Positions 1 through 18,319 of a stretch of DNA of 64,000 nucleotides are shown here, piece by piece (the first letter of the stretch is position 1; every line of letters starts with the position of its first letter). A program made the translations under genes and the position numbers. This stretch comes from Solirubrobacterales bacterium. GTDB taxonomy: Bacteria; Actinomycetota; Thermoleophilia; Solirubrobacterales; 70-9. The stretch is from NCBI GenBank assembly GCA_040900615.1, contig JBBDYP010000080.1:20090-84089 (forward strand), given 5' to 3'. The notes under the pieces are model-generated. The model saw only the letters and a list, made by a program, of their open reading frames with translations. It was not told the DNA's origin and did no database searches.

Positions 1-961
1 CGCCGAGGGATGTCGTCGGCTCGCGGGGGACAGCGGCTTGAGGACCATCCCCCTCTCCGAGAACCATCGCTCCTCTCAGAAGCTCTGCGATGTCGCTGCC
101 AACTTCAGCCGCCGGCAGGCCGACGTCGCGGTCGGCGAGAATCGAGATTGCGCCATCGAGCCCGAGCTCTTCCTTTATCCCCCGGATGACCCGCAGGCCG
201 CCGTCGCGCATTACCGGCATCGCCTGGAGGTCCACGAGATCGAGTGCTCGGAGGCGGCGCTGCTGGCGCGCAGTCACGCGATGCGCGTCCGGCTCGGGGG
301 CCAGCGCGAGCTGGTCGCTGTGAAACCCAAACCTCAGATGGTTGGCGAACTCGCCGCGGCCCTGGCGGCAGGGCGACTTGACCGGGTTCATCTAGGAAGG
401 GCCGAGGCCCTGATCGCCTGGGGCGCTTTCGACCTCAACCCCGCCGAGCTCGACCCGGAGACACGAGAGGAGGTGGCGCGCGCGACCAGGCGCTTCATCG
501 GGGCGCTTCCTGGGTTCGATGGCGATCTCCGCAGTTGGATCATCGCCGCACGTGAGTCCTACGGGGCCGCTCTCGATGCAGTGACTTCGGCACCCGCGCA
601 CAAGCCAGGAAACGCTCTTGCGAGCAGCGCCAGCCACGCTGACTTTGAAGCGGCCGAGGTCTTCGCGCCGCCGCCGGCCGACCTCCTTCCCCAGACGGTT
701 CACGCGCTTAAGGGAGAGGACCGCGAGGCGGTGATGGTCGTCCTCAAGAAGCACCACGGCAACGATCGGTCCGACCAGCTGCAGCTGATCCATTCGGTGC
801 TCGACGGAGAGGAGAGCTCAGAGGTAGACGAAGAGGAGCGGCGTATCGTCTACGTCGCCCTGACCCGCGCCGAACGGTTCTGCCTTCTTGCGCTGCCCGA
901 CGACCCGAAGGGTCGCGCGCTGGCCGCCCGGTGTGAATCGATCGGATTCACCGTGCGCTGA
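1..961 (+). CDS. UvrD/Rep-type superfamily-1 helicase, C-terminal part (5' end lies outside the window; frame open from base 2)
   Basis: The reading frame has no stop back to the window edge. The translation carries SF1 helicase motifs LSENHRSSQKL (motif IV-like), TVHALKGEDREAVMVV (motif V-like) and RIVYVALTRAERF (motif VI). Confidence 0.75.
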   Translation, partial: AEGCRRLAGDSGLRTIPLSENHRSSQKLCDVAANFSRRQADVAVGENRDCAIEPELFLYPPDDPQAAVAHYRHRLEVHEIECSEAALLARSHAMRVRLGGQRELVAVKPKPQMVGELAAALAAGRLDRVHLGRAEALIAWGAFDLNPAELDPETREEVARATRRFIGALPGFDGDLRSWIIAARESYGAALDAVTSAPAHKPGNALASSASHADFEAAEVFAPPPADLLPQTVHALKGEDREAVMVVLKKHHGNDRSDQLQLIHSVLDGEESSEVDEEERRIVYVALTRAERFCLLALPDDPKGRALAARCESIGFTVR

Positions 962-2204
962 GCGCCGCCGTCGGTGTGGTCTCCTGGAGGAGCCCCACGT
1001 CCGCTCGCGATCGCCTCAGGCAAGTCACTGGCAACGCGGAGGCACCTAGCTGCCAGCGTGCTGGAGACGACTCTTTGAAACAGCCGGCGCGAAGTGCAAT
1101 CTCAACGAAGGCTTCACTCTCTTTGATCTGGGCTCGGGGCAGCGCCTCCGTCAGCTCGGCCGCTGACATTTGGCCGTGCGGCGCGCGTGCCAGGTGGTGC
1201 ATCGCCAGGCGGGTCCACGCCGCACCGCGATTGCTCGCCGCCAACTGCTCCGGGCCGGGCACGTCGGGGGTCATGCGCGCGAAATCTGAGTAGGCGGCCT
1301 GGTACCTCGAGTAGGCATAAATGAGGCCGAAGCCGAACTCAACGGCAGCGTCACCGATCTTCTGCCTCGTAGCGGTTGAGGGTGGCCGCGCCCAGAGCAC
1401 CCCGGCAAGGCCGATCCCAAGTGCCGCCAGCACCCAGGGCGAGAAGCGATCAGCGATCCGCCGTGCGCCGGCGAGCAGGCCAGCGCCAGCGGCCATCGGA
1501 AGCGCCCCGGCCGAAAAGATCAGTTTCCCCAGCTGGCCGACGTCCCCACCGGCCATCAGGCATTGGAGCCATGCGTGATGAACGCTGCGGTCGACCTCCT
1601 CGCCGTAGACGGCGCGCAGGGCTGGTCCGTCCTCGCTCAGGTAGAAGGCCTCGATGGCGAGCGCCAGGGTCACTGACGGGATGTCGTCGGGGTCAGCCTG
1701 CTCCAGCGTCCGCACCCGCGCGACCTCGGCCGCGTCGAGCAGGTGTCGTGGAAGATCACGGTCCTCGATGACGCGGATCAGCGGCAGGTATTCCGAGCGC
1801 CACCGTGCCTTGAGCTGGTCAGGGGTGACTCCATCCGATTCCAGCGCCCATAGCTCGGCGTACTCGACCAGCTCATCGAGAACATGCGACGCAGCGAACA
1901 GGCGGATCGCCCCGGAGTTGGCCGCCGTGACCAGGACAGTGCGGCGGTCGTTTTCGCAGGCGTAGCGAAGGTCGTTGCGAAGGACGTTTGCATCGACGAC
2001 CACCGGCGGGACTCTTTGATCAAGGGGCCCTGGGCGCCAGGCCGAAGGGAAGGCACCGTACTCATCCGGACCGTTGATCGGCTCAGTCGCCGCATGCACG
2101 TGGCTGGCTCTCAGCACTCGCTCGACGGCCAGCATCACTCGCTGCTCGCCAGGCGACGGAGTGGAGCCAGCGAAGTAAGTCTGTGGTCTTGGGTGCACTG
2201 CCAT
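948..2204 (-). CDS. PIN-like domain protein with central hydrophobic segments and a C-terminal helical domain
   Basis: ORF 948..2339; the ATG at 2204 (MAVHPRPQ) is preferred because it removes the overlap with the upstream gene. VVVDANVL, SHVLDEL and DPDDIPSVTLALAIEAFYLSEDG resemble the PIN acidic-residue pattern. GALPMAAGAGLLAG and VLAALGIGLAGVLW are TM-like stretches. Confidence 0.5.
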   Translation of the reverse strand: MAVHPRPQTYFAGSTPSPGEQRVMLAVERVLRASHVHAATEPINGPDEYGAFPSAWRPGPLDQRVPPVVVDANVLRNDLRYACENDRRTVLVTAANSGAIRLFAASHVLDELVEYAELWALESDGVTPDQLKARWRSEYLPLIRVIEDRDLPRHLLDAAEVARVRTLEQADPDDIPSVTLALAIEAFYLSEDGPALRAVYGEEVDRSVHHAWLQCLMAGGDVGQLGKLIFSAGALPMAAGAGLLAGARRIADRFSPWVLAALGIGLAGVLWARPPSTATRQKIGDAAVEFGFGLIYAYSRYQAAYSDFARMTPDVPGPEQLAASNRGAAWTRLAMHHLARAPHGQMSAAELTEALPRAQIKESEAFVEIALRAGCFKESSPARWQLGASALPVTCLRRSRADVGLLQETTPTAALSAR

Positions 2205-2316
2205 GGATACCCAACGATTGCAGTTGGCCAAGACTGACGGGAGGCGGTCGCAGCTCTCGCGATGCGCTTGAGCCGGCCCGCTGGCATCACTCGATGGACG
2301 CTCGATGTGGGTAGCG

Positions 2317-3327
2317 TCAGCCCCCCGCCTCCGGACCACCCGAGCCAGTCAGATCGAGCAGCGCGGGATTGTCGGTCTCTTTTGCGAGAGCAGGCAGGGC
2401 AAGACCGGGTCGGATTCGATACCAGCTCCTCCAGAAAAGGCCGGCAACTCCTGGCGCCTGCCGGCGGGCCACGAGCTTTTGTAATGCGGCGCCCTCCCAC
2501 GCTCGCACGAGCGGGAGCTCGACGACGGGGCGGTCCAAGTTCGTGCCGGTCGGCTCACCCTCGGCGCTCCATTCCCAGACGAGCTGCAGCGCATGGTAAG
2601 CCCAGTGACTGCGCACGATGGTCGCCTTGTGCTCGTCGCGCGTGACCTCGCCGGTGATTGGGCCGAGGAACAGGTTTCCCGAGGTTCCGTGCGGAGTCGG
2701 GTTCTCTTTCAACAGTTGATTGATCGCGCCGAAGACGGCGTCGAGCTCGAAGGAGAGCACGAGGCCGGGCGGAAACTCGCCGCCGTCGAGGTAGCACGCA
2801 AACGAGCTCGGCACCTCGAAGCCGCAATCGGCGATCCGACAGCCGATGTGCTTGACGAAGTAGCGACAAACCTTCTCTGCGAGGCTTGCCCAGTCGGAGT
2901 CGATCTCCTCGAGCGGGAGTAGGCGGGAGGTTTCGACAGCGTCCTCGCTTTCGGCGAACCAGCCCACCAGGCGGTCGTAGGCCCGATCGAAGGGCTGGCT
3001 GCGGGCGTTATTGCAGCTGGCGCAGAAGACATCCTTGAATTTCACGGCACCGGCCTTCGGTCCTGCGACGGTTGTGGTCCGGTCGCCGCGACGGACGATC
3101 ACTTCGCCCTCGTTGTACTCCTCCCTGGAGAACTCGCGGCGCAGGTCGGTTGCCTTATATCGATGCTCTCGCGACCCTGCCGCCCCTTCACACCACCAGC
3201 AGGTGCCGGCGTGGTCGTGGCGACAGAGTGGAGGCGTGCTCGCTGCGGGCACGATCAACACTGTAAGTCCTGGGTGAATTGAGTTTGAGAATGTCGAGGA
3301 GCGGCATGGGCAAAGCGCCGGTTGCAT
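2317..3327 (-). CDS. hypothetical protein with an HNH-like zinc-finger nuclease signature (CxxC .. EH .. CxxCN)
   Basis: ORF 2317..3399; the ATG at 3327 or a GTG/TTG slightly downstream are plausible starts. Motifs CWWCEGAAGSREH and CASCNNARS are present. The roughly 230-aa C-terminal region has no motif I recognise. Confidence 0.4.
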   Translation of the reverse strand: MQPALCPCRSSTFSNSIHPGLTVLIVPAASTPPLCRHDHAGTCWWCEGAAGSREHRYKATDLRREFSREEYNEGEVIVRRGDRTTTVAGPKAGAVKFKDVFCASCNNARSQPFDRAYDRLVGWFAESEDAVETSRLLPLEEIDSDWASLAEKVCRYFVKHIGCRIADCGFEVPSSFACYLDGGEFPPGLVLSFELDAVFGAINQLLKENPTPHGTSGNLFLGPITGEVTRDEHKATIVRSHWAYHALQLVWEWSAEGEPTGTNLDRPVVELPLVRAWEGAALQKLVARRQAPGVAGLFWRSWYRIRPGLALPALAKETDNPALLDLTGSGGPEAGG

Positions 3328-3344
3328 GGATTCGGCGTGTTGGT

Positions 3345-3365
3345 CAGAATCGCGCGTACATTCTG
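3345..3365. promoter_or_regulatory. inverted repeat CAGAAT-N9-ATTCTG in the divergent intergenic region between the HNH-like gene and the 431-aa gene
   Basis: Read directly: cagaat (3345-3350) and attctg (3360-3365), in a comparatively AT-rich spacer. Confidence 0.3.
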
Positions 3366-3426
3366 CGTTGGTGAGGAGCCGCGCACCGGGAGAGCGCATA
3401 GCAACCGGGGAAGGGGTGCGTTATAG

Positions 3427-4722
3427 ATGAACATCGCCTTGCTCCACTTGCGCCTTAATGCTCAATACGAGGCGCTCGAGTACGGAGGCACCTTCACCGC
3501 CGTCTTGCCTGCCGGCGGAAGGAGTTGGGGGCAGCGGCGGCCGACCCTTCTCCTCTCGGGTGGGGAGATCGTCGAGCTGGGCCATGTCAGGGCCGAGGGC
3601 AAACGTATCGCCACCGGCATGCGGCGGATGCGCTACGAGCGCCTCCTCGCGCTCGACCCCGAGATCTCGGTCGCCGAGGTCGTGAGCAATCTGAGCTCCT
3701 CCATCCGACACCATTTCGAAGCCCGGCTAGGCGAAGACGTTGTTTTACCCGAGCGCACCAGCGCCGCCGTGGTCGAGGCCCTGGAGTCGCTCAGCGATGA
3801 GGTGGCTGAGGTCAGCGCTGACTTCCTGCGCCCGGTAGTGAGGCGAGTGCGGAGACTTGATGGGGCAGCGCTTCAGGCGACCGCCCAGGAGGCCGACGCG
3901 GTCCGCCTTGCACTCGACATCGCCGGCATCCCAAGACAGGAGCTGCACGGCACGCGCCCGGACGGCGAGACCCCCTATGTCCAGGCTCTCTCCGAAGTGC
4001 GGGTCTTTGAGGATCAGGCGATCGACTACGACGCCGGGAGGTTCCTGGACTTCGAGCGGATTGAGCGCCCCAACGGGATGGTTCATTTCTCCCGCGGCGC
4101 GGAGCGCCTAACCGTCCTCAACGTCAACCGCCGCCCACTTGAGCGGCTGACCGGCGCCGATCTGATCTACCACAACGAGACCCACGACAGTTTCGTCCTT
4201 GTCCAGTACAAGACGATGACTCGCGAGGGTGATCTCGGCGATACGCGCCTTGTCTATCGACCGGACTCCGACCGGAATCTCGCCGGCGAGCTAGAGCGGA
4301 TGCGTGCGCTTGCTGAGGTCCCCGGCGATGGCAGCGCGGAGCAGTGGCGGCTGAACCCGGGCTTCTGCTTCATCAAGCTCTGCCGGCCGGTTCTCAATCT
4401 CGACTACCCCGAGCGGGAGCTAGTCGGAGGCATGTATCTGCCGCTTTCCTATTGGGACCTACTCGTCGCCTCGCCTGTCACCGTAGGCCCGCGAGGCGGC
4501 AGCGTGCTGAGCTACGAGACGGTCACGCGCCGCTTCGACAACTCTCTGTTCGTCCAGCTAGTTCGCGGCAGCTGGCTCGGCTCACGGGCGGAGACGACCG
4601 AGACGATCACTGATTTGGTCCTTCAGGGACTCGACGCCAACCGCTCGGTGACCGTCGCCTCGGCGTGGAGCGTCGCGCCGACGCAGGGCGAGCCGCAAGA
4701 GGAAGTGGCTCGGGGTCAATGA
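3427..4722 (+). CDS. hypothetical 431-aa protein; possible Mrr/PD-(D/E)xK-type nuclease core
   Basis: The ATG at 3427 is preceded by GGGGAAGGGG. Amino-acid composition is coherent and non-repetitive. GADLIYHNETHDSFVLVQYK fits a D-x(n)-QxK restriction-endonuclease-fold pattern. Confidence 0.5.
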   Translation: MNIALLHLRLNAQYEALEYGGTFTAVLPAGGRSWGQRRPTLLLSGGEIVELGHVRAEGKRIATGMRRMRYERLLALDPEISVAEVVSNLSSSIRHHFEARLGEDVVLPERTSAAVVEALESLSDEVAEVSADFLRPVVRRVRRLDGAALQATAQEADAVRLALDIAGIPRQELHGTRPDGETPYVQALSEVRVFEDQAIDYDAGRFLDFERIERPNGMVHFSRGAERLTVLNVNRRPLERLTGADLIYHNETHDSFVLVQYKTMTREGDLGDTRLVYRPDSDRNLAGELERMRALAEVPGDGSAEQWRLNPGFCFIKLCRPVLNLDYPERELVGGMYLPLSYWDLLVASPVTVGPRGGSVLSYETVTRRFDNSLFVQLVRGSWLGSRAETTETITDLVLQGLDANRSVTVASAWSVAPTQGEPQEEVARGQ

Positions 4723-4871
4723 TCCGGAGCCACAATCCACCAGAATCGCCCGGCATCCACAGGAATCTCTCCGCTTTCGCGGGAGCTGCTACGCTTGGGT
4801 AGTGAGCGCATTTTTCCCATTTTAGAGCGCTTTTCCAGCGCCTGGAACCCCGGAATCACAACACTCCGACC

Positions 4872-4918
4872 GACGACTGAAAATCGTGGTGTCGTGGGTT
4901 CGATTCCCACCCTCGCCA
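4872..4918 (+). tRNA. orphan 3' half of a tRNA-Phe(GAA) gene (not a complete tRNA); putative att remnant
   Basis: Anticodon loop CTGAAAA (GAA at 4879-4881), variable region GTGTC, T arm GTGGG-TTCGATT-CCCAC, 3' acceptor CCTCGCC plus discriminator A. No complementary GGCGAGG and no D arm occur upstream. Confidence 0.6.
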
Positions 4919-4973
4919 TCGCCGCTCCCGGGCCCCGCGGGCACCGGAAGCTCAGGCTGACACGCCGGCCGTC

Positions 4974-5531
4974 TTACACACGCCGGTAGCGAACGTAGAC
5001 CACGCGAGAGCCAAACGTCCGTGTCTCGACCAGCTCCAGGGTGATCCTCTCGTCCAGGGCCGGGAAGTAAGGCGTGCCTCCGCCCAGGACGACCGGGCTG
5101 ACGAAGAGCCGGTACTCGTCGATGAGGCCCAGGCTGATGAAGGTGGAGGCCAGGCCAGCGCCGCCGACGGCCAGGTCCTTTCCTGGCTGTTCCTTCAGCT
5201 TGGCGAGCTCTTCGGCAACGCCGCCCCTGACCAGCCTGGCATTGCCCTCGACCTTCTCGAGGGTCTTCGAGAACACGATCTTCGGCAAGTTCTTCCAGAT
5301 GCGGGCGAACTCGAGCTCGTGCTCCGCGGCCGACGGGTTCTCCTCAGCGGTCTCCCAGTACGCCATCTCCTCGTAAAGCCGCCGTCCGCAGAGGTGCGCG
5401 CCGATCTCCCGCGTCTGCTGGTTATGGAACCGATGCAGCTCCTCGTCCGGCGCCGACCAGTCGATCTCGCCGCCCGGCCCAGCGATGAAGCCATCCAGCG
5501 ACACTCCCATCGAGTAGATCAGCTTGCGCAT
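4974..5531 (-). CDS. dihydrofolate reductase family protein (RibD C-terminal domain type)
   Basis: MRKLIYSMGVSLDGFIAGPGGEIDW ... LFVSPVVLGGGTPYF is typical of this family. The strong RBS AAGGAGGA lies 5 nt upstream of the ATG at 5531. Confidence 0.85.
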   Translation of the reverse strand: MRKLIYSMGVSLDGFIAGPGGEIDWSAPDEELHRFHNQQTREIGAHLCGRRLYEEMAYWETAEENPSAAEHELEFARIWKNLPKIVFSKTLEKVEGNARLVRGGVAEELAKLKEQPGKDLAVGGAGLASTFISLGLIDEYRLFVSPVVLGGGTPYFPALDERITLELVETRTFGSRVVYVRYRRV

Positions 5532-5695
5532 CACGGTCCTCCTTGGTTGGCGCCCATTCTTCCGTGATCTCCGCGATGCGGGTTTCCCGGTCCGGGACCG
5601 CGGCGCATCACCGATGGCGCCTCAGCTCCAGACGCCTAGCCTGGCATTGCCGACTGCGCGAGAGAAGCGCTTTCCCGCCGAGGAGGAACAGGGTC

Positions 5696-7066
5696 ATGAG
5701 CGCGCCGAGTCGTCAATCGATGCCAGCCGCGGACGCGGCCTGGCTGCACATGGATCGTTCGACCAACCCGATGGTGGTGAACGGGCTGGTGACGCTCGGA
5801 GAGACGCCGGCGGTCGAAGCGGTGGCCGAGGTGATCGAGGAGCGGTTGGTGGGGCGGTATCCCCGCTTCGGGCAGCGCGTTGTCGATCAACTCGGCCGCG
5901 CCCCTGCGTTCGAGGACGATCCGTTCTTCGATCTCAGGAACCACCTGCACCGGCGGATGCTGCCGGCGCCCGGGGACCAGGGGGCGCTGGAGGCGATGGT
6001 CAGCGACCTGATCACCTCGCCGCTCGATCCCGGCAAGCCCCTCTGGCACGCCTTCTTGATCGAGGGGTACGACGGCGGCTCGGCGATGCTCTGGCGCATC
6101 CACCACTGCATCGCCGACGGGATCGCGCTCGCGCAGGTGATGCTGTCGATCACGGACCGGCCTGAGTCGGGCCGGCAGCGAGCGGCGCCGGCCCCGCCTG
6201 AGCACGGCATCCTCGCCCGGGCCACGGCGGCGCCCGGCGAGGCCGCCTCCGCGGCCCGGGCGCTCGCCGGCGCCGCGGTCCACGAGGGCGCGGAGTCGCT
6301 CGCCCACCCCCGGCATCTGCGCGAGCTCGCCGGCGCCGCCCTCCGCGACGTCTCCACGGCGGCGAAGCTCCTCGCCTCCCCCGCGGACGCGCCCAGCACG
6401 CTGCGCCGGCCGCTCTCGGGCGCGCGGCGGGTGGCGTGGTCGGCGCCCTTCCCGCTGGACCGGGTCAAGGACGCCTGCCACCGGCGCCGCGTCACCGTCA
6501 ACGACATGCTGCTGAGCGCCCTCGCCGCCACCCTCGCCGAGAGCCTGAGGGGGGACGGCCTGCCGCGGGAGGAGATCCACGCGATGGTCCCGGTCAACCT
6601 GCGCCCGCTCGATCGGCCGGTCCCCGCCGACCTCGGCAACGACTTCGCCCTGATCCTGCTGGAGCTGCCGGTCGGCGACCTGCGGCCCGCCGAGCGCCTG
6701 CGCCAGGTGAACAGCCGCATGAACGCGATCAAGGACTCGCACGAGGCGCCGATCTCCTTCGGCCTCCTCAACGCGATCGGGATGACGCCGCCCTGGGTCG
6801 AGGACCGTCTGATCGGCTTCTTCACCGACAAGGCGAGCCTGGTCGTCACCAACGTCCCCGGCCCCAGCGAGCAGCTGAGCTTTGCCGGCGCCCCGGTCAC
6901 CGGCGTCCTCGTCTGGGCCCCCTGCTCGGGCAGCATCGGAATGACCGTCAGCATCTTCAGCTACGCCGGCGAGGTCACCGTCGGCTTCATGGCCGACACC
7001 GCCCTCGTCCCGGACCCCGAGCCGCTGGCGCGCAGCTACGAGGCCGAGCTGGAGCGACTCTGCTGA
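5696..7066 (+). CDS. wax ester synthase/diacylglycerol acyltransferase (WS/DGAT) family protein
   Basis: HHCIADG (HHxxxDG active-site motif) and the C-terminal TNVPGP motif are present. The ATG at 5696 is preceded by AGGAGGA. Confidence 0.85.
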   Translation: MSAPSRQSMPAADAAWLHMDRSTNPMVVNGLVTLGETPAVEAVAEVIEERLVGRYPRFGQRVVDQLGRAPAFEDDPFFDLRNHLHRRMLPAPGDQGALEAMVSDLITSPLDPGKPLWHAFLIEGYDGGSAMLWRIHHCIADGIALAQVMLSITDRPESGRQRAAPAPPEHGILARATAAPGEAASAARALAGAAVHEGAESLAHPRHLRELAGAALRDVSTAAKLLASPADAPSTLRRPLSGARRVAWSAPFPLDRVKDACHRRRVTVNDMLLSALAATLAESLRGDGLPREEIHAMVPVNLRPLDRPVPADLGNDFALILLELPVGDLRPAERLRQVNSRMNAIKDSHEAPISFGLLNAIGMTPPWVEDRLIGFFTDKASLVVTNVPGPSEQLSFAGAPVTGVLVWAPCSGSIGMTVSIFSYAGEVTVGFMADTALVPDPEPLARSYEAELERLC

Positions 7067-7965
7067 TCTACTCCCCGGCGGAAGCGCGCAACGGTCACCG
7101 AGACGAGGTCGGTGTGCTCGCCGGCGAGCGCGGTGAGGTCGGGATCGTGGTGGGCGCTGGGCCCCATCAGGGCGAGGCGGCGGGCGTCATCCTCGGAGAG
7201 GGCGATCTCGTACTCGACGGTGGCGGCGCCGGCGAGGTCGAACCACGGCTCGAGGCGCTCCGTGAGGCGGTCCAGCTTGTCCTCCTGAATGCCGATCAGG
7301 GTCAGCCGCTCGCGCAGGCGCTCGAGATGGCGGGGACCGGCGAGGGCGACGACCAGCCCACCGCCGGGCCGGGTGACGCGGCCGAGCTCGGGACCGGGCC
7401 TCGGGGCGAAGGCCGAGAGCACCAGGTCGGCGGCTGAGTCGCGGAGGGGGATCGCCTCTTCGACATCCGCGACGACGAAGCGGAGGTCGGGGTGGCGCCG
7501 GGCCGCGTGCGCGGCCGCCGCCTTGGAGAGGTCGAAGCCGAAGCCGCACCCGGGCCCTGAGCCACGCTCGCGCAGGGCGCGGACCACCGCGTCGAGGTAG
7601 TAGCCGGTTCCGGAGCCGACCTCGGCGACGACTGTCGCTCGGGCGGTGGCCTCGGCGGCTCCCGCCGCCGCCTCTCCCGCCGCCTCCTCGGGTCCGCACA
7701 CCGCCTCGACCGCCGCCGCCCGAACCGCCGCGGCGATCGGCTCGTAATGGCCCGTCGCCAGGAACTCCGCCCGCGCCCGCACCATCTCCGCCGTGTCGCC
7801 GACCCGTCCGCGACCGCCGCTCCTCCGCGTCAGGTTGAGATACCCCGACCGCGCGTAGTCGAAGGAGTGGCCCTCGGGGCAGCGAGCGCTGCCGCCGGCG
7901 TCGGCGAGCGGACTTGCGCACACCGGGCACGACAGAAGTGTGGTGCAGGGCTCGCGGTTATCCAC
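7036..7965 (-). CDS. RlmA-type 23S rRNA (guanine-N1)-methyltransferase-like protein
   Basis: N-terminal zinc ribbon CPVCASPL..CPEGHSFDYARSGYLNL, then SAM motif VAEVGSGTGYY. The GTG at 7965 is chosen as start; the ORF extends to 8526 only as an off-frame shadow. Confidence 0.75.
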   Translation of the reverse strand: MDNREPCTTLLSCPVCASPLADAGGSARCPEGHSFDYARSGYLNLTRRSGGRGRVGDTAEMVRARAEFLATGHYEPIAAAVRAAAVEAVCGPEEAAGEAAAGAAEATARATVVAEVGSGTGYYLDAVVRALRERGSGPGCGFGFDLSKAAAAHAARRHPDLRFVVADVEEAIPLRDSAADLVLSAFAPRPGPELGRVTRPGGGLVVALAGPRHLERLRERLTLIGIQEDKLDRLTERLEPWFDLAGAATVEYEIALSEDDARRLALMGPSAHHDPDLTALAGEHTDLVSVTVARFRRGVDQQSRSSSAS

Positions 7966-8022
7966 TCGGGGGTCGCCGACTCGACCTCGGTCCTCGGCCG
8001 CACCATACTTCCACCCAGGACC

Positions 8023-9390
8023 ATGCCGGCCTCGATCCCAGCGATTGCGCGCAGTCGCCTCCCCGAGCTCCTCGCCCGCGAGGAAACCCTGTTCGCCGAG
8101 CGTCACCCGCGCTCGCGCGAGCTCTTCGAGCAGGGGTCCGCGGCGCTCCTTGCCGGGGTCCCGATGAGCTGGATGTCGCGCTGGGCCGGCCCGCACCCCG
8201 TCTACCTCGACCGCGCCGAGGGGGCCGAGGTCCTCGACGTCGACGGCAACGCCTACGCGGACCTCTGCCTCGGCGATACCGGGGCGATGGCCGGCCACGC
8301 CCCGGCGCCGGTTCTGGAGGCCGTGCGCGAGCGCTACGCGAGCGGGGCCACGGCGATGCTGCCGACTGCGGACGCGGGCTGGGTCGCAGAGGAGCTGAGC
8401 CGCCGCTTCGGGACGCTGCGCTGGCAGTTCACCCTCACCGCCACCGACGCCAACCGCTTCGCGATCCGCGTCGCCCGCCATCTCACCGGGCGGCCGAAGG
8501 TCCTGGTCTTCAACTACTGCTACCACGGCACCGTCGACGAGAGCTTCGCGACGCTGCGCGGCGGCGAGGTCGTCGCCCGCGAGGGCAACGTCGGGCCGCC
8601 CGTCCCGCTGGCGGAGACGACGCGAGTGGTCGAGTTCAACGACCTGGCGGGCCTCGAGCGCGAGCTGGCGGTGGGCGACGTCGCCTGCGTCCTGACCGAG
8701 CCGGCGCTAACCAACATCGGCATCGTCCTGCCAGACGAGGGCTTCCACGACGGCCTGCGCGAGCTGACCGCCGCCGCCGGGACGCTGCTCGCGATCGACG
8801 AGACCCACACGCTCAGCGCCGGCCCCGGCGGTTGCACGCGCCGCTGGGGCCTGCGGCCCGACATGGTCACGCTCGGCAAGGCGATCGCCGGCGGCGTCCC
8901 GGCCGGCGCCCTCGGGATGAGGCCGGAGCTTGGGGCGCGCCTGCTCGGCGCACCCGACGCCGACGTCGAGGACACCGGCGGCGTCGGCGGCACCCTCGCC
9001 GGCAACGCCCTCTCCCTCGCCGCGGCCCGGGCCACGCTGGCCGAGGTGCTCGACGACTCCGCCTGGGAGCGCACCGAGCCGCTGGCCGCCCGCCTCGTCG
9101 CCGCGGTCGAGGAGGCGCTGCGTCGCCACGGGGTCGGCTGGCACATCGTCCAGCTCGGCTGCCGGGCCGAGTACCGGTTCTCGCCCGAGCCGCCTCGCAA
9201 CGGCGGCGAGGCCGCGGCGCTCGGCGACCCCGAGCTGGAGCGCTACCTGCACCTCTACGCGCTCAACCGCGGCGTCTTGATCGCGCCCTTCCACAACATG
9301 GCGCTGATCTGCCCGGCGACGCGGGCGGAGCACGTCGACCGCCACACCGAAGCGTTCGACGGCGCCTTGCGCGAGCTGCTCTCAGCCTGA
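8023..9390 (+). CDS. class III (PLP-dependent) aminotransferase, glutamate-1-semialdehyde aminomutase-like
   Basis: DLCLGDTGAMAGH, NYCYHGTVDE, IDETHT and TLGKAIAGG (PLP lysine context) are present. The ATG at 8023 lies within ORF 7747..9390. Confidence 0.8.
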   Translation: MPASIPAIARSRLPELLAREETLFAERHPRSRELFEQGSAALLAGVPMSWMSRWAGPHPVYLDRAEGAEVLDVDGNAYADLCLGDTGAMAGHAPAPVLEAVRERYASGATAMLPTADAGWVAEELSRRFGTLRWQFTLTATDANRFAIRVARHLTGRPKVLVFNYCYHGTVDESFATLRGGEVVAREGNVGPPVPLAETTRVVEFNDLAGLERELAVGDVACVLTEPALTNIGIVLPDEGFHDGLRELTAAAGTLLAIDETHTLSAGPGGCTRRWGLRPDMVTLGKAIAGGVPAGALGMRPELGARLLGAPDADVEDTGGVGGTLAGNALSLAAARATLAEVLDDSAWERTEPLAARLVAAVEEALRRHGVGWHIVQLGCRAEYRFSPEPPRNGGEAAALGDPELERYLHLYALNRGVLIAPFHNMALICPATRAEHVDRHTEAFDGALRELLSA

Positions 9391-9407
9391 GCGCGGAGCG
9401 GCCGCGG

Positions 9408-10145
9408 TCAGCCCCCGGTCGCCGAGAAGTGCTGGAAGTCCTTCGGCCAGGTCCAGTCGCCGCCCCACTCCCAGCCGGCATCGGCGAACGCCTCCACGAC
9501 CGGGCCCTCCCGGTGGATCAGCCCGGGGACCCGGCGGGAGCGGTCGGCGAAGCGGGCGCCGGCCGGCGGCGAGACGTAGCCATCGCCGCTCGCGTAGGGG
9601 TTCTCGATCGGGTTGACGTCGATCGCCCGGCCGTAGGCGTGCTCGGACCAGCGGTCGGTGCCGGAGACGAAGCGGCAGTTGAAGGCGGAGGTGTTGTCGG
9701 CGTCCATGCTGTGGTGGTCGTCGGCGCCGTAGGCGTCGACGAGGCGCATCCGCCGGATCGGGAAACGCAGCCGGTAGAGCTTGCGCATGACGCCGAGCAT
9801 CTCCTGGGCGGAATCGCGGTTGACGACCAACCGGCCGCGATGGACATCGCCGTCGAATCCCCAGTGGCTGACGCTGAGCAGGCGCAGCTCGTCGAGGCCG
9901 ACCGGGCAGCCGCGGTGCCAGGAGACGCCGGTCATCCGCTGCCTCGTCTCGGGATCGATCGGCGCCGCGTGGCCGCGGAAGTGCGGGGAGGTGTCGGCCC
10001 GCGGGGCGGCTTCGGTCGGTGGGGAGGTAGCCGCTCGCGGCGCGCTCGGCACCGAGCTGCCGAGCAGCGTCAGGGCGGCGATGCCGAGCGCGAGCAGGCT
10101 CACCTGGCGGCGCCCGCTATTTCGCCTGCGTGACCGCAAACGCAA
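9408..10145 (-). CDS. secreted M15-family metallopeptidase (VanY/D-Ala-D-Ala carboxypeptidase-like)
   Basis: Arg-rich n-region plus hydrophobic signal peptide. SEHAYGRAIDVNP and WEWGGDW..DFQHF are typical of M15 peptidases. The start is TTG at 10145. Confidence 0.8.
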   Translation of the reverse strand: MRLRSRRRNSGRRQVSLLALGIAALTLLGSSVPSAPRAATSPPTEAAPRADTSPHFRGHAAPIDPETRQRMTGVSWHRGCPVGLDELRLLSVSHWGFDGDVHRGRLVVNRDSAQEMLGVMRKLYRLRFPIRRMRLVDAYGADDHHSMDADNTSAFNCRFVSGTDRWSEHAYGRAIDVNPIENPYASGDGYVSPPAGARFADRSRRVPGLIHREGPVVEAFADAGWEWGGDWTWPKDFQHFSATGG

Positions 10146-10782
10146 CCGAGACCGTGGACGCCGGGGTGCAGTCGGGATCCCCGAAGACTTTGGCGGAGAT
10201 GGTCTGGGTGACGCCGGGGCTGGTCAGGCCGATCGGGGCGGTCGCGCCGGTAACCGGCAAGAGGCCGGTCGGGAACTCCGGGGTCGGGGCGAAGGCGACG
10301 ACGAGAAGGGCGCCTTCGGCCACGTCCCACTGGCTGCCGTTGACGAAGGGGACGACCCTGGCCGCGCATGCTTCTTCGCCGACGCGGCCGAGGTTTTCGC
10401 CCTTGGCTTCGACGCTGAGGAAGTCGACTGCTTCGGCGGTCGGGGTGAAGCTGGTGGTGCCGGTGAGGGTGACGGTCACCGGAGCGGAGCCGGACGCCGG
10501 GACCGGCCCGCCGCTGGCCCTGGCGATCACGTTGGCGCCCGTCGCGAGTTTGGCGAAGGTGACCGCGCCATCCTTGATCTTCGCCGTGGTCACGGCTTTG
10601 GCCCGGATTTTCGCCGTGGTCACCGCGTTGCGCTTGATCTTGCCGGCGCTGACCGAGTTCGCCTTCAGCTTCTTGGCGCCGATCTTCCCCGACGCCCAGA
10701 CGACCCCGCCGCTGAGGGCCAGGAACAGGGCCAGCGTCGCGATCACGTTGGCGTAGGTCAGTCGCCGCCTCACCGCTTCCAT
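10117..10782 (-). CDS. membrane-anchored hypothetical protein with 4 x 10-aa tandem repeats
   Basis: The ATG at 10782 is preceded by AAGGAGG. N-terminal TM segment VIATLALFLALSGGVVW. Repeats are NSVSAGKIKR/NAVTTAKIRA/KAVTTAKIKD/GAVTFAKLAT. Confidence 0.55.
   Translation of the reverse strand: MEAVRRRLTYANVIATLALFLALSGGVVWASGKIGAKKLKANSVSAGKIKRNAVTTAKIRAKAVTTAKIKDGAVTFAKLATGANVIARASGGPVPASGSAPVTVTLTGTTSFTPTAEAVDFLSVEAKGENLGRVGEEACAARVVPFVNGSQWDVAEGALLVVAFAPTPEFPTGLLPVTGATAPIGLTSPGVTQTISAKVFGDPDCTPASTVSVAFAVTQAK
10543..10674 (-). repeat. 30-nt (10-aa) tandem coding repeat, about 4 copies
   Basis: tcgccgtggtcac recurs at 10581 and 10611, with a degenerate copy near 10641. The repeats are periodic in the translation. 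Confidence 0.6.
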
Positions 10783-10891
10783 GCGTGCCTCCTTGGCTGC
10801 GTTCGCTCGAAGCCTCTTCAGCCAAAATAGCGGCGCCACGACCAGAATGTGGACATTCGGCTGTCCTGCGGCGCTGATAGGAGCTTCTGTA

Positions 10892-11296
10892 ATGCGGATG
10901 CCTCGACTCGACCGGCGGGAGCTGGCGGCTATCTACGCCGGTGGGGTGGTCGGGGCGCTGGCCCGGGTCGGGCTGGCTGAGGCGGCGCCGCACGGAGCCG
11001 CCGCCTGGCCCTGGGCGACCTTCGCCGCCAACATGGCCGGGGCGCTGCTGCTCGGCTACTTCGTCACCCGGCTGCAGGAGCGCCTGCCGCCGTCGAGCTA
11101 CCGGCGGCCGTTCCTCGGCACCGGGCTGTGCGGGGCGCTGACCACCTTCTCGACCCTGCAGCTGGAGCTGTTCGACATGCTCGAGGCTGGGCGGCTGGGG
11201 CTGTCGGCGGCCTACGTCGCGGCGACGCTGGCCGGCGGCTTCGCCTGCGTCCACCTGGCGACGGCGGCGGTGCGGCGCACGAGGACGGCCCGGTGA
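10892..11296 (+). CDS. crcB: fluoride ion channel CrcB/FluC, subunit 1
   Basis: LGTGLCGALTTFSTLQLE is the hallmark CrcB motif. The protein is small with 4 TM segments. The ATG at 10892 has the RBS-like sequence TAGGAGC upstream. Confidence 0.85.
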   Translation: MRMPRLDRRELAAIYAGGVVGALARVGLAEAAPHGAAAWPWATFAANMAGALLLGYFVTRLQERLPPSSYRRPFLGTGLCGALTTFSTLQLELFDMLEAGRLGLSAAYVAATLAGGFACVHLATAAVRRTRTAR

Positions 11297-11658
11297 GCGC
11301 CGCCGCCTGGATCGCGGTGGCGCTGCTCGGCGGGGTCGCGGCGCTGGCCCGCTTCGTGCTCGACGCGGCGATCTCCGAGCGGTTCGCCGGCCCGTTCCCG
11401 GCCGGGACGCTGGCCGTCAACCTCAGCGGCGCCGCCCTCCTCGGCCTGCTCGCCGGCGCCGCCCTGCACGGCACCGCGCTGACCGTCGTCGCCGGCGGCG
11501 GCCTCGGCTCCTACACCACCTTCTCGACCTGGATGTTCGAGTCCCACCGGCTCGGCGAGGTCGGCGACGCGCGGGCGCTCTGGCTCAACATCGTCCTCTC
11601 ACTGCTCGCCGGGCTGGCGGCGGTGGCGCTCGGCCACTGGCTCGGAGGCCTGCTGTGA
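11293..11658 (+). CDS. crcB: fluoride ion channel CrcB/FluC, subunit 2
   Basis: The GTG at 11293 overlaps the stop of the first crcB (GTGA). GLGSYTTFSTWMFE motif is present. Confidence 0.85.
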   Translation: MSAAAWIAVALLGGVAALARFVLDAAISERFAGPFPAGTLAVNLSGAALLGLLAGAALHGTALTVVAGGGLGSYTTFSTWMFESHRLGEVGDARALWLNIVLSLLAGLAAVALGHWLGGLL

Positions 11659-12719
11659 CGGCTGCGGCGGGGGGCGACGCCCTCAAGCTCGTCTTCTACT
11701 TCGGCGAGCACGACCGCCACCGCGGCCGCTTCCTCTCGGAGGCCGTCCTCGACCGCTTCGAGCGCCACCGGCTCGCGGCCGGCGTGCTGCTGCGGGGTGT
11801 CGAGGGCTTCGGCGCGCACCAGCGCCTCCAGACCGACCGCCTGCTCTCGCTCTCGGAGGACCTGCCGCTCGTCGCCACCGCGGTCGACCGCCCGGAGAGG
11901 ATCGAGGCCGTCGCCGCCGAGCTGGCCGGGCTCGCCGGCAAGGGCCTGCTGACCCTGGAGCGTGCGCGGCTCGCGGGAAGCGATCGCCGTCCCGAGGACG
12001 AACCCCACGGCGAGGTGAAGCTGACGGTCTATCTGGGACGGGGCGCTCGGCGCGGAGGCATGCCCGCCCACGTCAGCGTCGTCGCGGCCCTGCACCGCCA
12101 CGGCGTCGCCGGGGCGACGGCGCTGATCGGCGTCGACGGCGCCGCCGCGGGGCGCCGGCTCCGCGCCCGCTTCCTCTCCGCCAACAGCTGGGTGCCGGCG
12201 CTGGTCGTCGCGGTCGGCCGGCGCGAGCGGATCGCCGCCGCGCTTCGCGAGCTGGAGAGCGAAGGCGACCCAGCCCTGGCGACCCTCGAGGCGGTGCGGG
12301 TCTGCCGCCGCGACGGCACCGCGTTGGCGCTCCCACCCGACCCGCCTCCAGCGTTCCGTGGTTCCTCATCGACCGATGTGGTGCAAGAGGAACCACGGAC
12401 CGGACCCTGGACCAAGCTCAGCGTCTACTGCTCGGAGCGCTCCGAGCACGAGGGGCACCCGCTGTACCTGGAGCTGATCCGCCGCCTCCGGGCCGAGGGA
12501 GCGGCGGGCGCCACCGCGCTTCGCGGCGTCTGGGGCTACCACGGCGACCATGCCCCCCACGGCGACCGCCTGATGGCACTGCGCCGCCACGTCCCCGTCC
12601 TCACCACGCTGATCGACACTCCCTCGCGAAGCGAGCGCTGGTTCGAGATCGCCTCCGAGCTGACCGCGGAGACCGGTCTGCTGACCGCGGAGTCCGTTCC
12701 CCGGATCTTTACTTTGTAA
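11655..12719 (+). CDS. protein made of three tandem DUF190 (COG1993, PII-like) domains
   Basis: The GTG start overlaps the crcB2 stop. Three internally similar ~100-aa units begin KLVFYFGEHD, KLTVYLGRGA and KLSVYCSERS. Each contains a G(A/V)AGATAL/GVLLRGVxGxG-type segment. Confidence 0.7.
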   Translation: MTAAAGGDALKLVFYFGEHDRHRGRFLSEAVLDRFERHRLAAGVLLRGVEGFGAHQRLQTDRLLSLSEDLPLVATAVDRPERIEAVAAELAGLAGKGLLTLERARLAGSDRRPEDEPHGEVKLTVYLGRGARRGGMPAHVSVVAALHRHGVAGATALIGVDGAAAGRRLRARFLSANSWVPALVVAVGRRERIAAALRELESEGDPALATLEAVRVCRRDGTALALPPDPPPAFRGSSSTDVVQEEPRTGPWTKLSVYCSERSEHEGHPLYLELIRRLRAEGAAGATALRGVWGYHGDHAPHGDRLMALRRHVPVLTTLIDTPSRSERWFEIASELTAETGLLTAESVPRIFTL

Positions 12720-12781
12720 TCACTCCAAATTGGATAGGCTGGCCATGTGACCCGAACTGCATCAAGTTCCCCACCTGGCAG

Positions 12782-13261
12782 ATGGAGAGGTTGATGCAGT
12801 TCGCGCTCGCCAGTAGGGAGCAGATCGCCGAGCAGCTGCGCCGCCGCGGGCTGCGCGCGACCGGGCCGCGGGTCTCCGTCTACGCCGCGGTCGAGAGCCT
12901 TCCCGGCCACCCCGACGTGCAGGAGATCCTCGCCCGGGTCCACGAAAGCGGCGACCCCGTCTCCACCCAGGCGGTCTACGACTGCCTCGCGACCCTCGCC
13001 TCCGCCGGCCTGCTGCGGCGGATCGAGCCGGCCGGCAGCCCGGCTCGCTACGAGACCCGCGTCGGCGACAACCACCACCACATCGTCTGCCGGGCTTGCG
13101 GCGCGACCCGGGACGTCGACTGCGTCGCCGGCGCCGCGCCTTGCCTCGAGCCCGGCAGCGCCGGCGGCTTCGCCGTCGACGAGGCCGAGGTGACCTTCTG
13201 GGGCCTGTGCCCCGAGTGCCAGGCGGCAGCGACCCCGGCCGCCGCCAGTACCCAAGCCTGA
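12782..13261 (+). CDS. Fur-family transcriptional regulator (PerR/CatR-like)
   Basis: HHHIVCRACG ... CPEC metal-binding motifs and a winged-helix N-terminus. It lies immediately upstream of the catalase gene. Confidence 0.85.
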   Translation: MERLMQFALASREQIAEQLRRRGLRATGPRVSVYAAVESLPGHPDVQEILARVHESGDPVSTQAVYDCLATLASAGLLRRIEPAGSPARYETRVGDNHHHIVCRACGATRDVDCVAGAAPCLEPGSAGGFAVDEAEVTFWGLCPECQAAATPAAASTQA

Positions 13262-13300
13262 GATACAGAAAGCCAGATAACCGTAGGAGGACCAAAGAGC

Positions 13301-14806
13301 ATGAGCGACGAGAAGAAGCGACCCAGGACCACCACCGACTCCGGCGTCCCGCTGGCGAGCGACGAGCGCTCGCTGACCGTCGGCGAGCAGGGCCCGATCG
13401 TCCTCCACGACCACGCCACCGTGGCGAAGATGCAGCACTTCAACCGCGAGCGGGTCCCCGAGCGCGTCGTCCACGCCAAGGGCAGCGGTGCCCACGGCTT
13501 CTTCGAGGTGACCGAGGACGTCTCCCAGTTCACCAAGGCGGGCCTCTTCCAGCCCGGGGCGCGGACGCCGATGTTCGCTCGCTTCTCGACCGTCGCCGGC
13601 GAGCAGGGCTCCCCCGACACCGCCCGCGACCCGCGCGGCTTCGCGCTCAAGTTCTACACCGAGGAAGGCAACTACGACCTGGTCGGCAACAACACCCCGG
13701 TCTTCTTCATCCGCGACGCCTCCAAGTTCTCCGACTTCATCCACTCCCAGAAGCGGCTGCCCGACACCGGCATGCGCTCCAACGACATGCAGTGGGACTT
13801 CTGGACCCTCTCGCCGGAGAGCGCCCACCAGGTGACGATCCTGATGACCGACCGCGGCACCCCGCGCACCCTGCGCCACATGAACGGGTACGGCAGCCAC
13901 ACCTACTCCTGGATCAACGCCTCTGGGGAGAAGTTCTGGATCAAGTACCACTTCAAGACGGCTCAGGGGATCGAGAGCTACACCGAAGCGGAGGCGGTCC
14001 AGATGGCGTCGGAGGACCCCGACGCCCACCGCCGCGACCTGCGCGCCGCGATCGACGGGGGCAACGCTCCCGAATGGCGGCTGGAGATCCAGGTGATGCC
14101 GTTCGAGGAGGCGGCCGACTACCGCTTCAACCCGTTCGACCTGACCAAGATCTGGCCGCACGGGGACTACCCGCCGATCCAGGTAGGCCGGATGGTGCTC
14201 GACCGCAACCCGGAGCACTTCTTCGCCGAGGTCGAGCAGGCGGGCTTCTCGCCGTCGAACTTGGTGCCGGGGATCGGGCTCAGCCCCGACAAGATGCTGA
14301 TGGGCCGCATCTTCTCCTACCACGACACCCACCTGCACCGGATCGGCACCAACTACGAGCAGCTGCCGATCAACTCGCCCAAGGTCGAGGTCCACTCCTA
14401 CAACCAGGACGGCCCGATGACCTACCACCACTCAGGCGACCAGCCGCCCTACGCGCCGAACTCCTACGGCGGCCCGGTCGCCGACGCGGAGAGCGGCGCC
14501 GACCTGACCTGGTCGGTCGAGGCGGCCGAGATCGGCCGCTACGCCAACACCAAGCACGCCGAGGACGACGACTTCGGCCAGGCCGGGACCCTCTACCGCG
14601 AGGTGATGGACGACGCCGACCGCGATCACCTGGTCGAAAACATCGTCGGCCACGCCAGCGCCGAGGTCAGCGCCGAGGTCCAGGACCGCGTCGTCGCCTA
14701 CTGGACCCAGGTCGACGCCGAGCTTGGGTCGCGCGTGGGCAGCGGCCTGCTGGGCAGCGACGGCGGCGCCACTCCGCCGAAGGTCGAGGTTCCCAGCAAC
14801 GTCTGA
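13301..14806 (+). CDS. katA: monofunctional heme catalase
   Basis: [32 protein letters not shown] and [12 protein letters not shown] signatures. The RBS AGGAGGA lies upstream. Confidence 0.95.
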
Positions 14807-14831
14807 GGCCGTCTCTAATTTGGGTCGGGAT

Positions 14832-15824
14832 ATGCCAGAGCAGACGGCTATCCCGACCCCGATCGAACGGGTCGCCCTGCGCGATCTCGAGGACGGCCAG
14901 CGGGTGCGCGGGGTCTACGCGGTTCGCGAGCGCGAGCTGCGCCGCAAGCGCAACGGCGAGCCCTGGCTGCGACTCTCGGTCGGCGACGCCAGCGGCACGG
15001 CGGAGGCGGTCTCCTGGGAGGACGCGGAGGCCCGCTACGCGGCCGCCGCTCCGGGCAGTCCCGTCCTCGTCACCGGCGTCTTCGAGAACAGCGAACGCTG
15101 GGGCGCCAAGATCAAGGTCGCCGAGCTGCGCGAGGCCGAGCCGCACGAGTACACGACCGAGGACCTCGCCGCCGAGTCCCAGGTCTCCCTGGAGCTGCTC
15201 GAGCGCGACCTGCGGGCGCTGCTCGCCACGGTCCAGGACCCGCAGCTGCGGGTCCTGCTCGACCTCTTCTTCGGCGAGGACTCGCCCACATGGGCCCGCT
15301 TCCGCGACGCCCCGGCGGCGAAGGTCTACCACCAGGCCTACCGCCACGGGCTGCTCGAGCACACCCTCTCCGTCGCCCAGGCGGTCTCCGCCGCCGCCAA
15401 CTTCTTCCCCGGCATCGACCGCGACGTCGCCGTCACCGGCGCCCTCCTGCACGACATCGGCAAGACCGTCGCCTACAACGACGACCCGCTGGCGATCGAC
15501 CTCACCGACGCCGGCCGCCTCCAGGGCGAGATCCCGCTCGGCTACTACACGGTGCGCCGGGCGATCGAGGAGATCCCCGGCTTCGACCCCTCGCTCGGCC
15601 AGGCCGTCCTCCACATCATCCTCAGCCACCATGGCTCGCTCGAGCACGGCTCCCCGGTCGTGCCCGCCACCCGCGAGGCGGTCCTGGTCCACATGATCGA
15701 CAACCTCGGCGGCCGCCTCGGCAGCTTCGACCGCCTCGAGCGCCAGCTCCCCGCCGGCGAGTCCTGGTCGGGCTTCGATCGGGCGCTCTCCGGCTCGGCC
15801 TATTTCGGCGCCCGCGCCGCCTGA
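14832..15824 (+). CDS. OB-fold plus HD-domain 3'-5' exoribonuclease, YhaM family
   Basis: The N-terminal OB-like region is followed by HGLLEHTLSV, LLHDIGK and ILSHHGSLEHGSPV (HD domain). Confidence 0.7.
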   Translation: MPEQTAIPTPIERVALRDLEDGQRVRGVYAVRERELRRKRNGEPWLRLSVGDASGTAEAVSWEDAEARYAAAAPGSPVLVTGVFENSERWGAKIKVAELREAEPHEYTTEDLAAESQVSLELLERDLRALLATVQDPQLRVLLDLFFGEDSPTWARFRDAPAAKVYHQAYRHGLLEHTLSVAQAVSAAANFFPGIDRDVAVTGALLHDIGKTVAYNDDPLAIDLTDAGRLQGEIPLGYYTVRRAIEEIPGFDPSLGQAVLHIILSHHGSLEHGSPVVPATREAVLVHMIDNLGGRLGSFDRLERQLPAGESWSGFDRALSGSAYFGARAA

Positions 15825-15839
15825 AGCTCTGAGGATCCC

Positions 15840-16187: not shown

Positions 16188-16216
16188 GGCGTTCGTCGCA
16201 GACTATCCTGCCCAAC

Positions 16217-18268: not shown

Positions 18269-18319
18269 ACGTGGGTCGTGGCGCGGCGAAACCTACGTTT
18301 CCGTCCGTATAGGAGGAAA

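Follow-up and report, generated by a model that had tools for sequence, protein, structure and literature searches.

Introduction

Classical tRNA-integrating islands and prophages include P4-type elements, ICEs, pSAM2, and others. In these islands, the element carries the 3' part of the tRNA, the gene is rebuilt at the proximal junction, and a repeat of 40-60 nt is found. That such boundaries carry orphan tRNA halves is textbook knowledge. The anticodon loop was reportedly catalogued by Williams (in Nucleic Acids Res, 2002) among the crossover sublocations in tRNA genes.

A strategy in which the integrating element supplies a replacement tRNA has so far been described, to our knowledge, only for some temperate phages. 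This tRNA-dependent lysogeny was reported for the actinobacteriophages Fionnbharth, LeBron, Gaia, and others (Guerrero-Bustamante & Hatfull, mBio 2024; PMC10865867). These phages use cores of 8-17 bp and carry a cognate tRNA, which is sometimes encoded right after int. The strategy is found from mycobacteriophages and Gordonia phages with hints elsewhere, and in the same article it was proposed to be more widespread; a compact phage integration tool for mycobacteria was proposed as well (PMC10865867).

Here, a stretch of 64,000 nucleotides from a Solirubrobacterales contig (hereafter, the window) was analyzed, and the orphan 3' portion of a tRNA-Phe gene at positions 4873-4918 was compared with related loci. 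This scar is probably the attR of an island of ~14 kb, belonging to the integrase family designated as B below, that splits tRNA-Phe(GAA) and brings its own replacement tRNA-Phe.

Orphan 3' Portion of tRNA-Phe

In the first-pass annotation, window positions 4872-4918 were read as the 3' half of a tRNA-Phe at an island boundary. A degenerate pattern of the tRNA-Phe 3' half was run over 185,579 species genomes, and at least 120 blocks were obtained, nearly all from Solirubrobacterales metagenome-assembled genomes. The commonest intact tRNA-Phe(GAA) of Solirubrobacterales among the matches listed is GGCGAGGTAGCTCAGTTGGTAGAGCACACGA-CTGAAAA-TCGTG-GTGTC-GTGGG-TTCGATT-CCCAC-CCTCGCCA, and window 4873-4918 is identical to its positions 28-73 at 46 of 46 bases. 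The same gene is intact in about 60 Solirubrobacterales loci among the matches listed. The parts that had been recognized are all present as described: the loop CTGAAAA with the anticodon GAA, the variable region GTGTC, the T arm GTGGG/TTCGATT/CCCAC, and the 3' acceptor strand CCTCGCC followed by the discriminator A. The extent is to be shortened by one base on the left, where the G at 4872 is a mismatch to the tRNA; the DNA further left is unrelated to tRNA. A search of the window with up to 3 mismatches revealed this site only, and no site was found in 100 shuffles.

The features around the scar are as follows.

4703-4872, plus strand: non-coding P arm of the putative attR, aligned to the right-end arm of the related element L212
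4873-4918, plus strand: orphan 3' portion (positions 28-73) of the native tRNA-Phe(GAA), 46/46 identity, no tRNA called
4873-4888, plus strand: common core ACGACTGAAAATCGTG, anticodon stem-loop, tRNA positions 28-43; 5' pieces end at 43 and 3' pieces begin at 28
4919-4966, plus strand: native DNA just past the tRNA gene (B' side), by comparison with the flanks of intact tRNA-Phe in L009, L027, L044, and L058

No tRNA was called anywhere in the 64-kb window by ARAGORN, and Rfam gave none at the gathering score, in agreement with the earlier view that the fragment is not a functional tRNA. With a relaxed threshold, Rfam gave only a local match to the T arm (13.8 bits). Neither the 5' acceptor strand GGCGAGG nor a D arm was found in the 150 nt upstream of the fragment, the first reading having noted their absence from ~100 nt. 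Since no complete tRNA is called and no 5' half lies upstream, window 4873-4918 is confirmed to be a genuine orphan 3' portion of the host-type tRNA-Phe, not a complete tRNA.

Conserved Backbone on the Right Side and the Empty Site

Two features are found on the right side of the B' side.

4967-5572, minus strand: RibD_C (dihydrofolate-reductase-like) gene, Pfam RibD_C with e-value 4.6e-26, between scar and backbone
5574-19031, plus strand: chromosomal backbone downstream of tRNA-Phe across Solirubrobacterales (WS/DGAT, RlmA-like methyltransferase, and further genes), collinear by BLASTN

From 5574 to ~19,000, the window is collinear, in a constant orientation, with 27 related loci among the matches listed, and in all 27 of them the matching DNA lies 3' of the tRNA-Phe or its orphan. 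No homologue of window 1-4900 was found in any of the 27 backbone-sharing loci. The locus L040 represents the empty site: its intact tRNA-Phe is followed, after 45 nt, by the orthologue of the WS/DGAT gene (84% nucleotide identity). The collinear right flank and this empty site place the scar at the ancestral position of the tRNA-Phe 3' end. The B' side begins with TCGC, the same start as in several related genomes, and the BLAST match runs 20-25 nt beyond the tRNA in L021, L027, and L105.

The position thus shows what is expected of an attR, namely conserved backbone on one side, strain-specific DNA on the other, and an empty site in a relative. The proposed island boundary stands, with the backbone of the 27 loci on its right and unique defense cargo on its left, and the comparison with relatives that had been suggested for finding an empty site was successful. 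The lower GC content claimed for the left side is real but modest, 0.656 for window 1-4872 versus 0.704 for 5573-64000.

The RibD_C gene is missing from the empty-site genome L040, where tRNA and backbone are separated by 45 nt. Together with its ribosome-binding region it forms a module of ~605 nt. Copies of this module in five unrelated contexts reach 92-94% nucleotide identity, while the neighboring backbone genes show only 75-85% identity between genomes. The block of identity extends from ~35 nt before the start codon to ~10 nt after the stop codon. No terminal repeats were seen in the module. Judged from these alignments, it looks like a promoterless gene module moving between genomes. 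RibD_C was also tried as a synteny anchor for empty sites, and it was discarded: 90%-identical homologues occur in unrelated contexts with no tRNA-Phe nearby, which makes it useless for synteny.

Defense Cargo on the Left Side

Four genes precede the P arm in the window.

1-961, plus strand: 3' part of gajB (UvrD-type helicase, Gabija), Pfam UvrD_C on 38-961
948-2204, minus strand: PIN_2-domain protein of 418 aa, Pfam PIN_2, gene call on the Logan contigs L001/L209
2317-3261, minus strand: Cys-rich protein of 314 aa, gene call
3427-4722, plus strand: protein of 431 aa, exact protein on L001 only

The Logan contig L001 (11,376 bp) is identical to window 1-4919 in its positions 6458-11376 and extends 6.4 kb further left. 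It was the only Logan contig matched in exact-protein look-ups for the island genes, including the gene for the 431-aa protein. L001 ends exactly at the scar end, and another Logan contig, L002, starts 30 nt earlier. This overlap of exactly 30 nt indicates that the assembly graph branches inside the scar. No single independent Logan contig spans the join of island and backbone, as both L001 and L002 break inside the scar.

The gajB gene starts 745 bases before the window, and gajA is further upstream, outside the window. PADLOC identified GajB at L001 5712-7418 (8e-64) and GajA at L001 3925-5715 (6e-126). The two genes are adjacent with a 4-nt overlap and show the Pfam domains AAA_21/OLD-like_TOPRIM and UvrD-helicase, as expected for Gabija. 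The helicase and PIN genes that the first-pass annotation had placed on this side are both recovered by Pfam, as UvrD_C (38-961) and PIN_2 (948-2204). Further cargo on L001 consists of a PD-Lambda-2_B-like HTH/M78 protein, a HigB-like protein, a Beta protein (PD-Lambda-2_C-like), and an sce7726/P4-cII-like protein. Component A of PD-Lambda-2 was not recognized beside the B and C homologues. A metagenome scan with the PD-Lambda-2_B-like protein gave a best match of 55% identity, with no tRNA-Phe nearby.

Three adjacent genes without a match to defense families occupy window 948-4722, between Gabija and the island end. The 418-aa PIN_2 protein belongs to no PADLOC, NCBIfam, or PHROG family; the 314-aa Cys-rich protein has no match in Pfam, PADLOC, NCBIfam, and PHROGs, and the 431-aa protein has no significant family match in the same four collections. 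A nuclease-like D...QYK motif was recognized in the latter, by eye only. The PIN_2, Cys-rich, and 431-aa genes could be an undescribed defense module.

Among the proteins encoded in the 11.4 kb of the island read, none shows an integrase or recombinase signature, and this copy could therefore be truncated or immobile. Genes for capsid, tail, terminase, and lysis proteins were found neither in L001 nor in the complete related element L212. Viral-contig scans with the tRNA-Phe 3' half and with the 431-aa protein gave no match.

Divergent tRNA-Phe and Integrase-B Elements

At the left end of L001 (1-53), 11.3 kb left of the scar, there is a tRNA-Phe with the anticodon GAA (Rfam, 43 bits), whose 5' end is cut by the contig end. 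Six positions distinguish it from the scar, among them compensatory changes in both the anticodon stem (28/42) and the T stem. No second tRNA-Phe-like fragment was found inside L001. An intact upstream tRNA-Phe with an identical 3' segment of ~45 nt, which would be anticipated for a duplication of the 3' half, was accordingly not found, the only upstream copy being the one with 6 differences. The hallmark of a classical island, a proximal intact tRNA repeating the orphan with an identity block of ~40-60 nt, is not observed here.

L001 1-145, which comprises the tRNA and 92 nt including a hairpin, is 92% identical to L210 12423-12567 and L211 12421-12561. In L210 and L211, the matching tRNA follows a family-B integrase at a distance of ~0.85 kb, and the native tRNA is represented by a 5' fragment ~2.6 kb before it. 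The element tRNA-Phe and the native one can be distinguished by their D-loop types, AGGTCGGTA and AGTTGGTA, respectively. A complete cloverleaf of the element type is present in L210, L211, L212, L107, L022, and L073.

By a motif scan and tblastn, two families of tyrosine integrases (A and B) were recognized at the tRNA-Phe locus. Integrase B, a tyrosine integrase of ~510 aa with 774 homologues at E<=1e-30 in a protein search, precedes all six divergent (type-2) tRNA-Phe genes with readable upstream DNA; it is upstream of the type-2 module in L210, L211, L212, L107, L022, and L073. A native 5' fragment followed by integrase B was found in L022, L107, L210, L211, L212, and L213. The element tRNA-Phe comes next in five of the six, and L213, a short contig that begins inside the 5' fragment, ends before it.

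In L107 and L022, the upstream backbone runs into a native 5' fragment ending at position 43 (...CACGACTGAAAATCGTG|TGCTTAAA...), and integrase B and the type-2 tRNA-Phe follow. This upstream backbone, with conserved genes for a glycosyl hydrolase 15-like protein, LDcluster4, and an HRQ1-type helicase, is collinear with the empty-site locus L040 until tRNA position ~43. The 5' pieces in L022, L107, L211, and L213 end at position 43 (...CTGAAAATCGTG|TGCT...). Taken together, the attL of relatives ends at position 41-43, and the shared core is 14-16 bp. The 3' piece in the elements covers positions 28-76, and it overlaps the 5' piece only in the 16-bp anticodon stem-loop; this core, ACGA-CTGAAAA-TCGTG, is the only stretch common to both pieces of the split tRNA. 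The core is thus short and no functional tRNA is seen at the junctions, with attR starting from position 28 in the window and in L212, and attL judged in relatives. The partner junction sharing the core is seen in six homologous elements, and in the copy studied here L001 ends before the predicted site. L212 is a complete element of 11.7 kb with both tRNA pieces, the native 3' part following the right-end core.

The gene order in L210 and L211 is 5' fragment, integrase, RHH protein, small or PIN protein, tRNA-Phe, and defense-type cargo, and their tRNA-Phe has a TATAGAAT box and a terminator hairpin. Next to the replacement tRNA, L210-L213 all keep an RHH antitoxin-like gene, after which L211, L212, and L213 have a PIN (VapC-like) gene. 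Since tRNAs are common targets of VapC toxins, a functional link between the VapC-like gene and the diverged tRNA-Phe allele is conceivable.

Another tRNA-like sequence was seen at L001 143-215 (approximately window -6314 to -6242). It is degenerate with a well-formed 3' half, has the loop CTGCCAA, and is Gly-GCC-like; its counterpart at L073 1716-1781 has the loop CTTTCAA and is Glu-like. The remnant in L001 lies exactly between the part homologous to other integrase-B elements and the variable cargo. It may represent an additional attachment scar inside the element, used for cargo exchange.

In about ten public runs, Logan contigs with integrase B are only 2.1-3.3 kb long. Assemblies that break at both the native 5' fragment and the element tRNA would yield contigs of this length, and integrase-B elements are likely to be systematically fragmented in short-read assemblies.

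The Probable attR Arm

Window 4700-4960 was aligned with L212 13110-13379, and the mean column identity is 79%. The alignment includes an arm of ~175 nt left of the core. The junctions are ...CTCCGACACCG|ACGACTGAAAATCGTG for the attR of L212 and ...CTCCGACCG|ACGACTGAAAATCGTG for the window, and both read CCG|core. The P arm contains the conserved motifs GAGCCACAATCCACC and GGAATCTC, which are candidate arm-binding sites of the integrase. BLAST also matches the arms of L212 and L064, the match to L064 being weak (53 nt).

The comparison of the window P arm with the P' arms of related elements revealed no significant likeness: the number of shared 8-mers was equalled in 38 of 500 shuffles, and the local alignments reached z values of at most 2. 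The link to the family consequently comes from the tRNA module and the arm homology with L212. Since L212 is a complete integrase-B element, the homology between its arm and the one next to the scar suggests that scar and element family go together. With the tRNA module at the other end of L001 and no other tRNA-Phe fragment in this contig, the island of the window can probably be assigned to family B.

Other Elements at the tRNA-Phe Locus

The tRNA-Phe locus is an integration hot spot. Among the matches listed, drawn from the at least 120 blocks, there are at least 33 orphan 3' portions, of which 18 start exactly at the anticodon loop and the others keep 1-7 nt of the stem. Several tandem arrays were also found at the locus among these matches.

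Integrases of family A are ~375-415 aa long and are encoded at the orphan end (L038 4980-6227, L012 4379-5503, and L092 3789-4922). The integrase gene ends 52 nt from the orphan in L038, and is ~2-2.6 kb away in L012 and L092. An arm of the CAACAGCCGCAAA type is conserved at the orphans of L038, L092, and others such as L024, L057, and L104. Family-A elements rebuild the tRNA.

At the orphans of L042, L104 (2994-3035), and L106, the element arm carries GAGGGTGGGA. This sequence is complementary to the T-arm/acceptor strand, so that ARAGORN calls these three orphans tRNAs. They represent a distinct element family, in which a tRNA-like hairpin can form at the right junction.

L011 (3400-3900 on the minus strand, and 2-43) contains an intact tRNA-Phe that is native up to position 27, whereas its anticodon stem (TCCC/GGGA) and T arm are foreign. 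After 190 nt comes a native-type copy whose 5' half is degenerate, and then another orphan. The replacement pattern in L011 is not explained by crossover in the loop.

Proposed Mechanism and Alternatives

An integrase-B element would recombine at the host tRNA-Phe, with which it shares only the 16-bp anticodon stem-loop. The inverted core sites would be formed by the two strands of the stem, and the crossover or overlap region by the 7-nt loop. [quoted passage not shown] The element would compensate with its own complete tRNA-Phe(GAA), provided with a promoter-like box and a terminator hairpin, just downstream of the integrase and usually after an RHH/PIN toxin-antitoxin pair. Variable cargo would come next, represented here by the PD-Lambda-2-like genes, the sce7726/Beta-protein pair, Gabija, and the PIN_2 protein with two further proteins. 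The integrase and the 5' piece of this copy are predicted ~0.9-2.7 kb left of L001, and the element tRNA would be needed for the viability of the carrier cells. In window coordinates, the element tRNA-Phe should start near -6478; a small RHH/PIN pair, the integrase (PF00589 plus PF13102), and a P' arm of ~200 nt with GAGCCA repeats should come next in leftward order, before a native tRNA-Phe fragment ending ...CACGACTGAAAATCGTG near -9100 and the conserved upstream genes, of which the glycosyl hydrolase 15-like gene would be on the minus strand. The tRNA-Phe of the element would be the single functional copy in the genome.

The first-pass annotation had assumed a classical element that rebuilds its tRNA. 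In such an island, L001 1-53 would be a chimeric intact tRNA at the left junction, composed of a native 5' half and a foreign 3' half, the native 3' half would have been displaced to the right, and the integrase would have been lost later. The absence of an integrase from L001 fits such a loss, and the classical arrangement is the commonest here, with at least 11 intact/orphan tRNA-Phe pairs having identical 3' halves; the intact tRNA-Phe of L011, with a native 5' part, a foreign 3' part, and native orphans behind it, also speaks for it. However, in the anticodon stem the L001 copy and the scar disagree on both strands (28/42), which a loop crossover cannot produce. Furthermore, this copy and its adjoining 92 nt are 92% identical to a module inside integrase-B elements, 2.6 kb from the left junction, and the arm in the window has its counterpart at the right end of L212, an element that has a non-restored 5' fragment as its left junction. 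The L001 copy is thus better described as an internal module of the element than as a junction, and the partner of the scar in relatives is a 5' fragment (1-43), so that the classical arrangement is unlikely for this island.

A composite locus, in which an older unrelated element left the scar, an integrase-B element came later, and recombination between scars removed the intervening DNA, is somewhat less probable again; scar and present cargo would then differ in origin. Tandem scars and nested islands are common (L104 and L112 have two orphans each, and L011 three tRNA-Phe-like copies), the RibD_C module by the scar looks like a separate acquisition, and the degenerate tRNA-Gly-like remnant at L001 143-215 lies where the homology to other elements ends. 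These points are opposed by the lack of an internal tRNA-Phe fragment in L001 and by the ~175-nt arm next to the scar, which is homologous to that of L212, a complete integrase-B element. An assembly artifact that joined two strains through a shared tRNA-Phe, or a chance or pseudo-tRNA sequence, is very improbable. The sample is a diverse soil-type metagenome, and the independent Logan contigs, which end within the scar, overlap by no more than k-1, a setting in which a false join could arise, but the attR of L212 is likewise followed by non-element DNA after the same junction, the bases after the scar (TCGC...) resemble native tRNA-Phe flanks, and such a scar must precede the downstream backbone of tRNA-Phe in whichever strain. 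A chance sequence is excluded by the 46/46 identity and the absence of matches in shuffles.

Two other candidates were set aside as unnecessary given the internal-tRNA architecture. In one, a loop crossover was followed by compensatory mutation of position 28; in the other, the native tRNA was of type 2 and the crossover took place at its extreme 3' end.

Implications and Comparison with Known Systems

Under the preferred reading, an unrepaired split by an integrase-B element, the first-pass annotation is refined in that the scar is half of a split tRNA gene left without repair, and the nearby tRNA-Phe is the replacement copy of the island. A broader generalization, whose chances are judged evenly balanced, is that widespread defense islands of soil Solirubrobacterales, free of phage genes, split tRNA-Phe and add a diverged replacement beside a VapBC-like pair. 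Phenylalanine decoding in the host would then require the island unless it had been precisely excised, which would be a 'tRNA addiction' stabilizing the defense cargo, and the replacement allele might be insensitive to tRNA-cleaving toxins.

If the preferred reading is true, the strategy reaches beyond phages to small defense islands, to tRNA-Phe, and to a deep-branching uncultured order of actinobacteria. Island finders that seek a long tRNA-derived repeat beside an intact tRNA would mis-set or miss such boundaries, because no more than 16 bp are repeated and the nearby intact tRNA lies inside the element. A tRNA carried by the element would be a simple stabilizer of the defense cargo. The integrase, the 16-bp core, and the tRNA module would together be a compact candidate integration tool for high-GC actinobacteria.

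In its cargo, the island resembles islands with Gabija and PD-Lambda-2: gajA and gajB are adjacent with strong PADLOC matches, and the homologues of PD-Lambda-2 B and C occur with a HigB-like small protein. The Gabija and PD-Lambda-2 genes are cargo here, and PD-Lambda-2 A was not recognized in it.

The likeness to classical tRNA islands consists of the tyrosine integrase, which is seen here in the relatives, the tRNA target, the orphan 3' portion at the distal end, and the accessory cargo of lower GC content. Unlike in classical islands, the repeat is 16 nt, a dead 5' fragment stands at the proximal junction in relatives, and a separate complete tRNA would replace the function.

These differences are shared with tRNA-dependent lysogeny in the following respects. 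The site lies within a tRNA gene of an actinobacterial host and is used by a tyrosine integrase, which is predicted for the present copy and found in its relatives, the core is short (8-17 bp in the phages, 14-16 bp here), and an element tRNA of the same isotype is encoded near the integrase, as in Gaia. Unlike in tRNA-dependent lysogeny, no recognizable phage genes are present in the 11.4 kb of L001 and the window or in the 11.7 kb of L212, and neither element has the character of a temperate phage. The cargo consists of anti-phage defense and toxin-antitoxin genes, which together with the absence of phage genes points to an island rather than a prophage. The phages of tRNA-dependent lysogeny use tRNA genes for Lys, Ile2, or Leu, whereas the target here is tRNA-Phe(GAA), and the host belongs to Thermoleophilia/Solirubrobacterales, in a clade known only from metagenomes, whose carriers would depend on the tRNA of the element.
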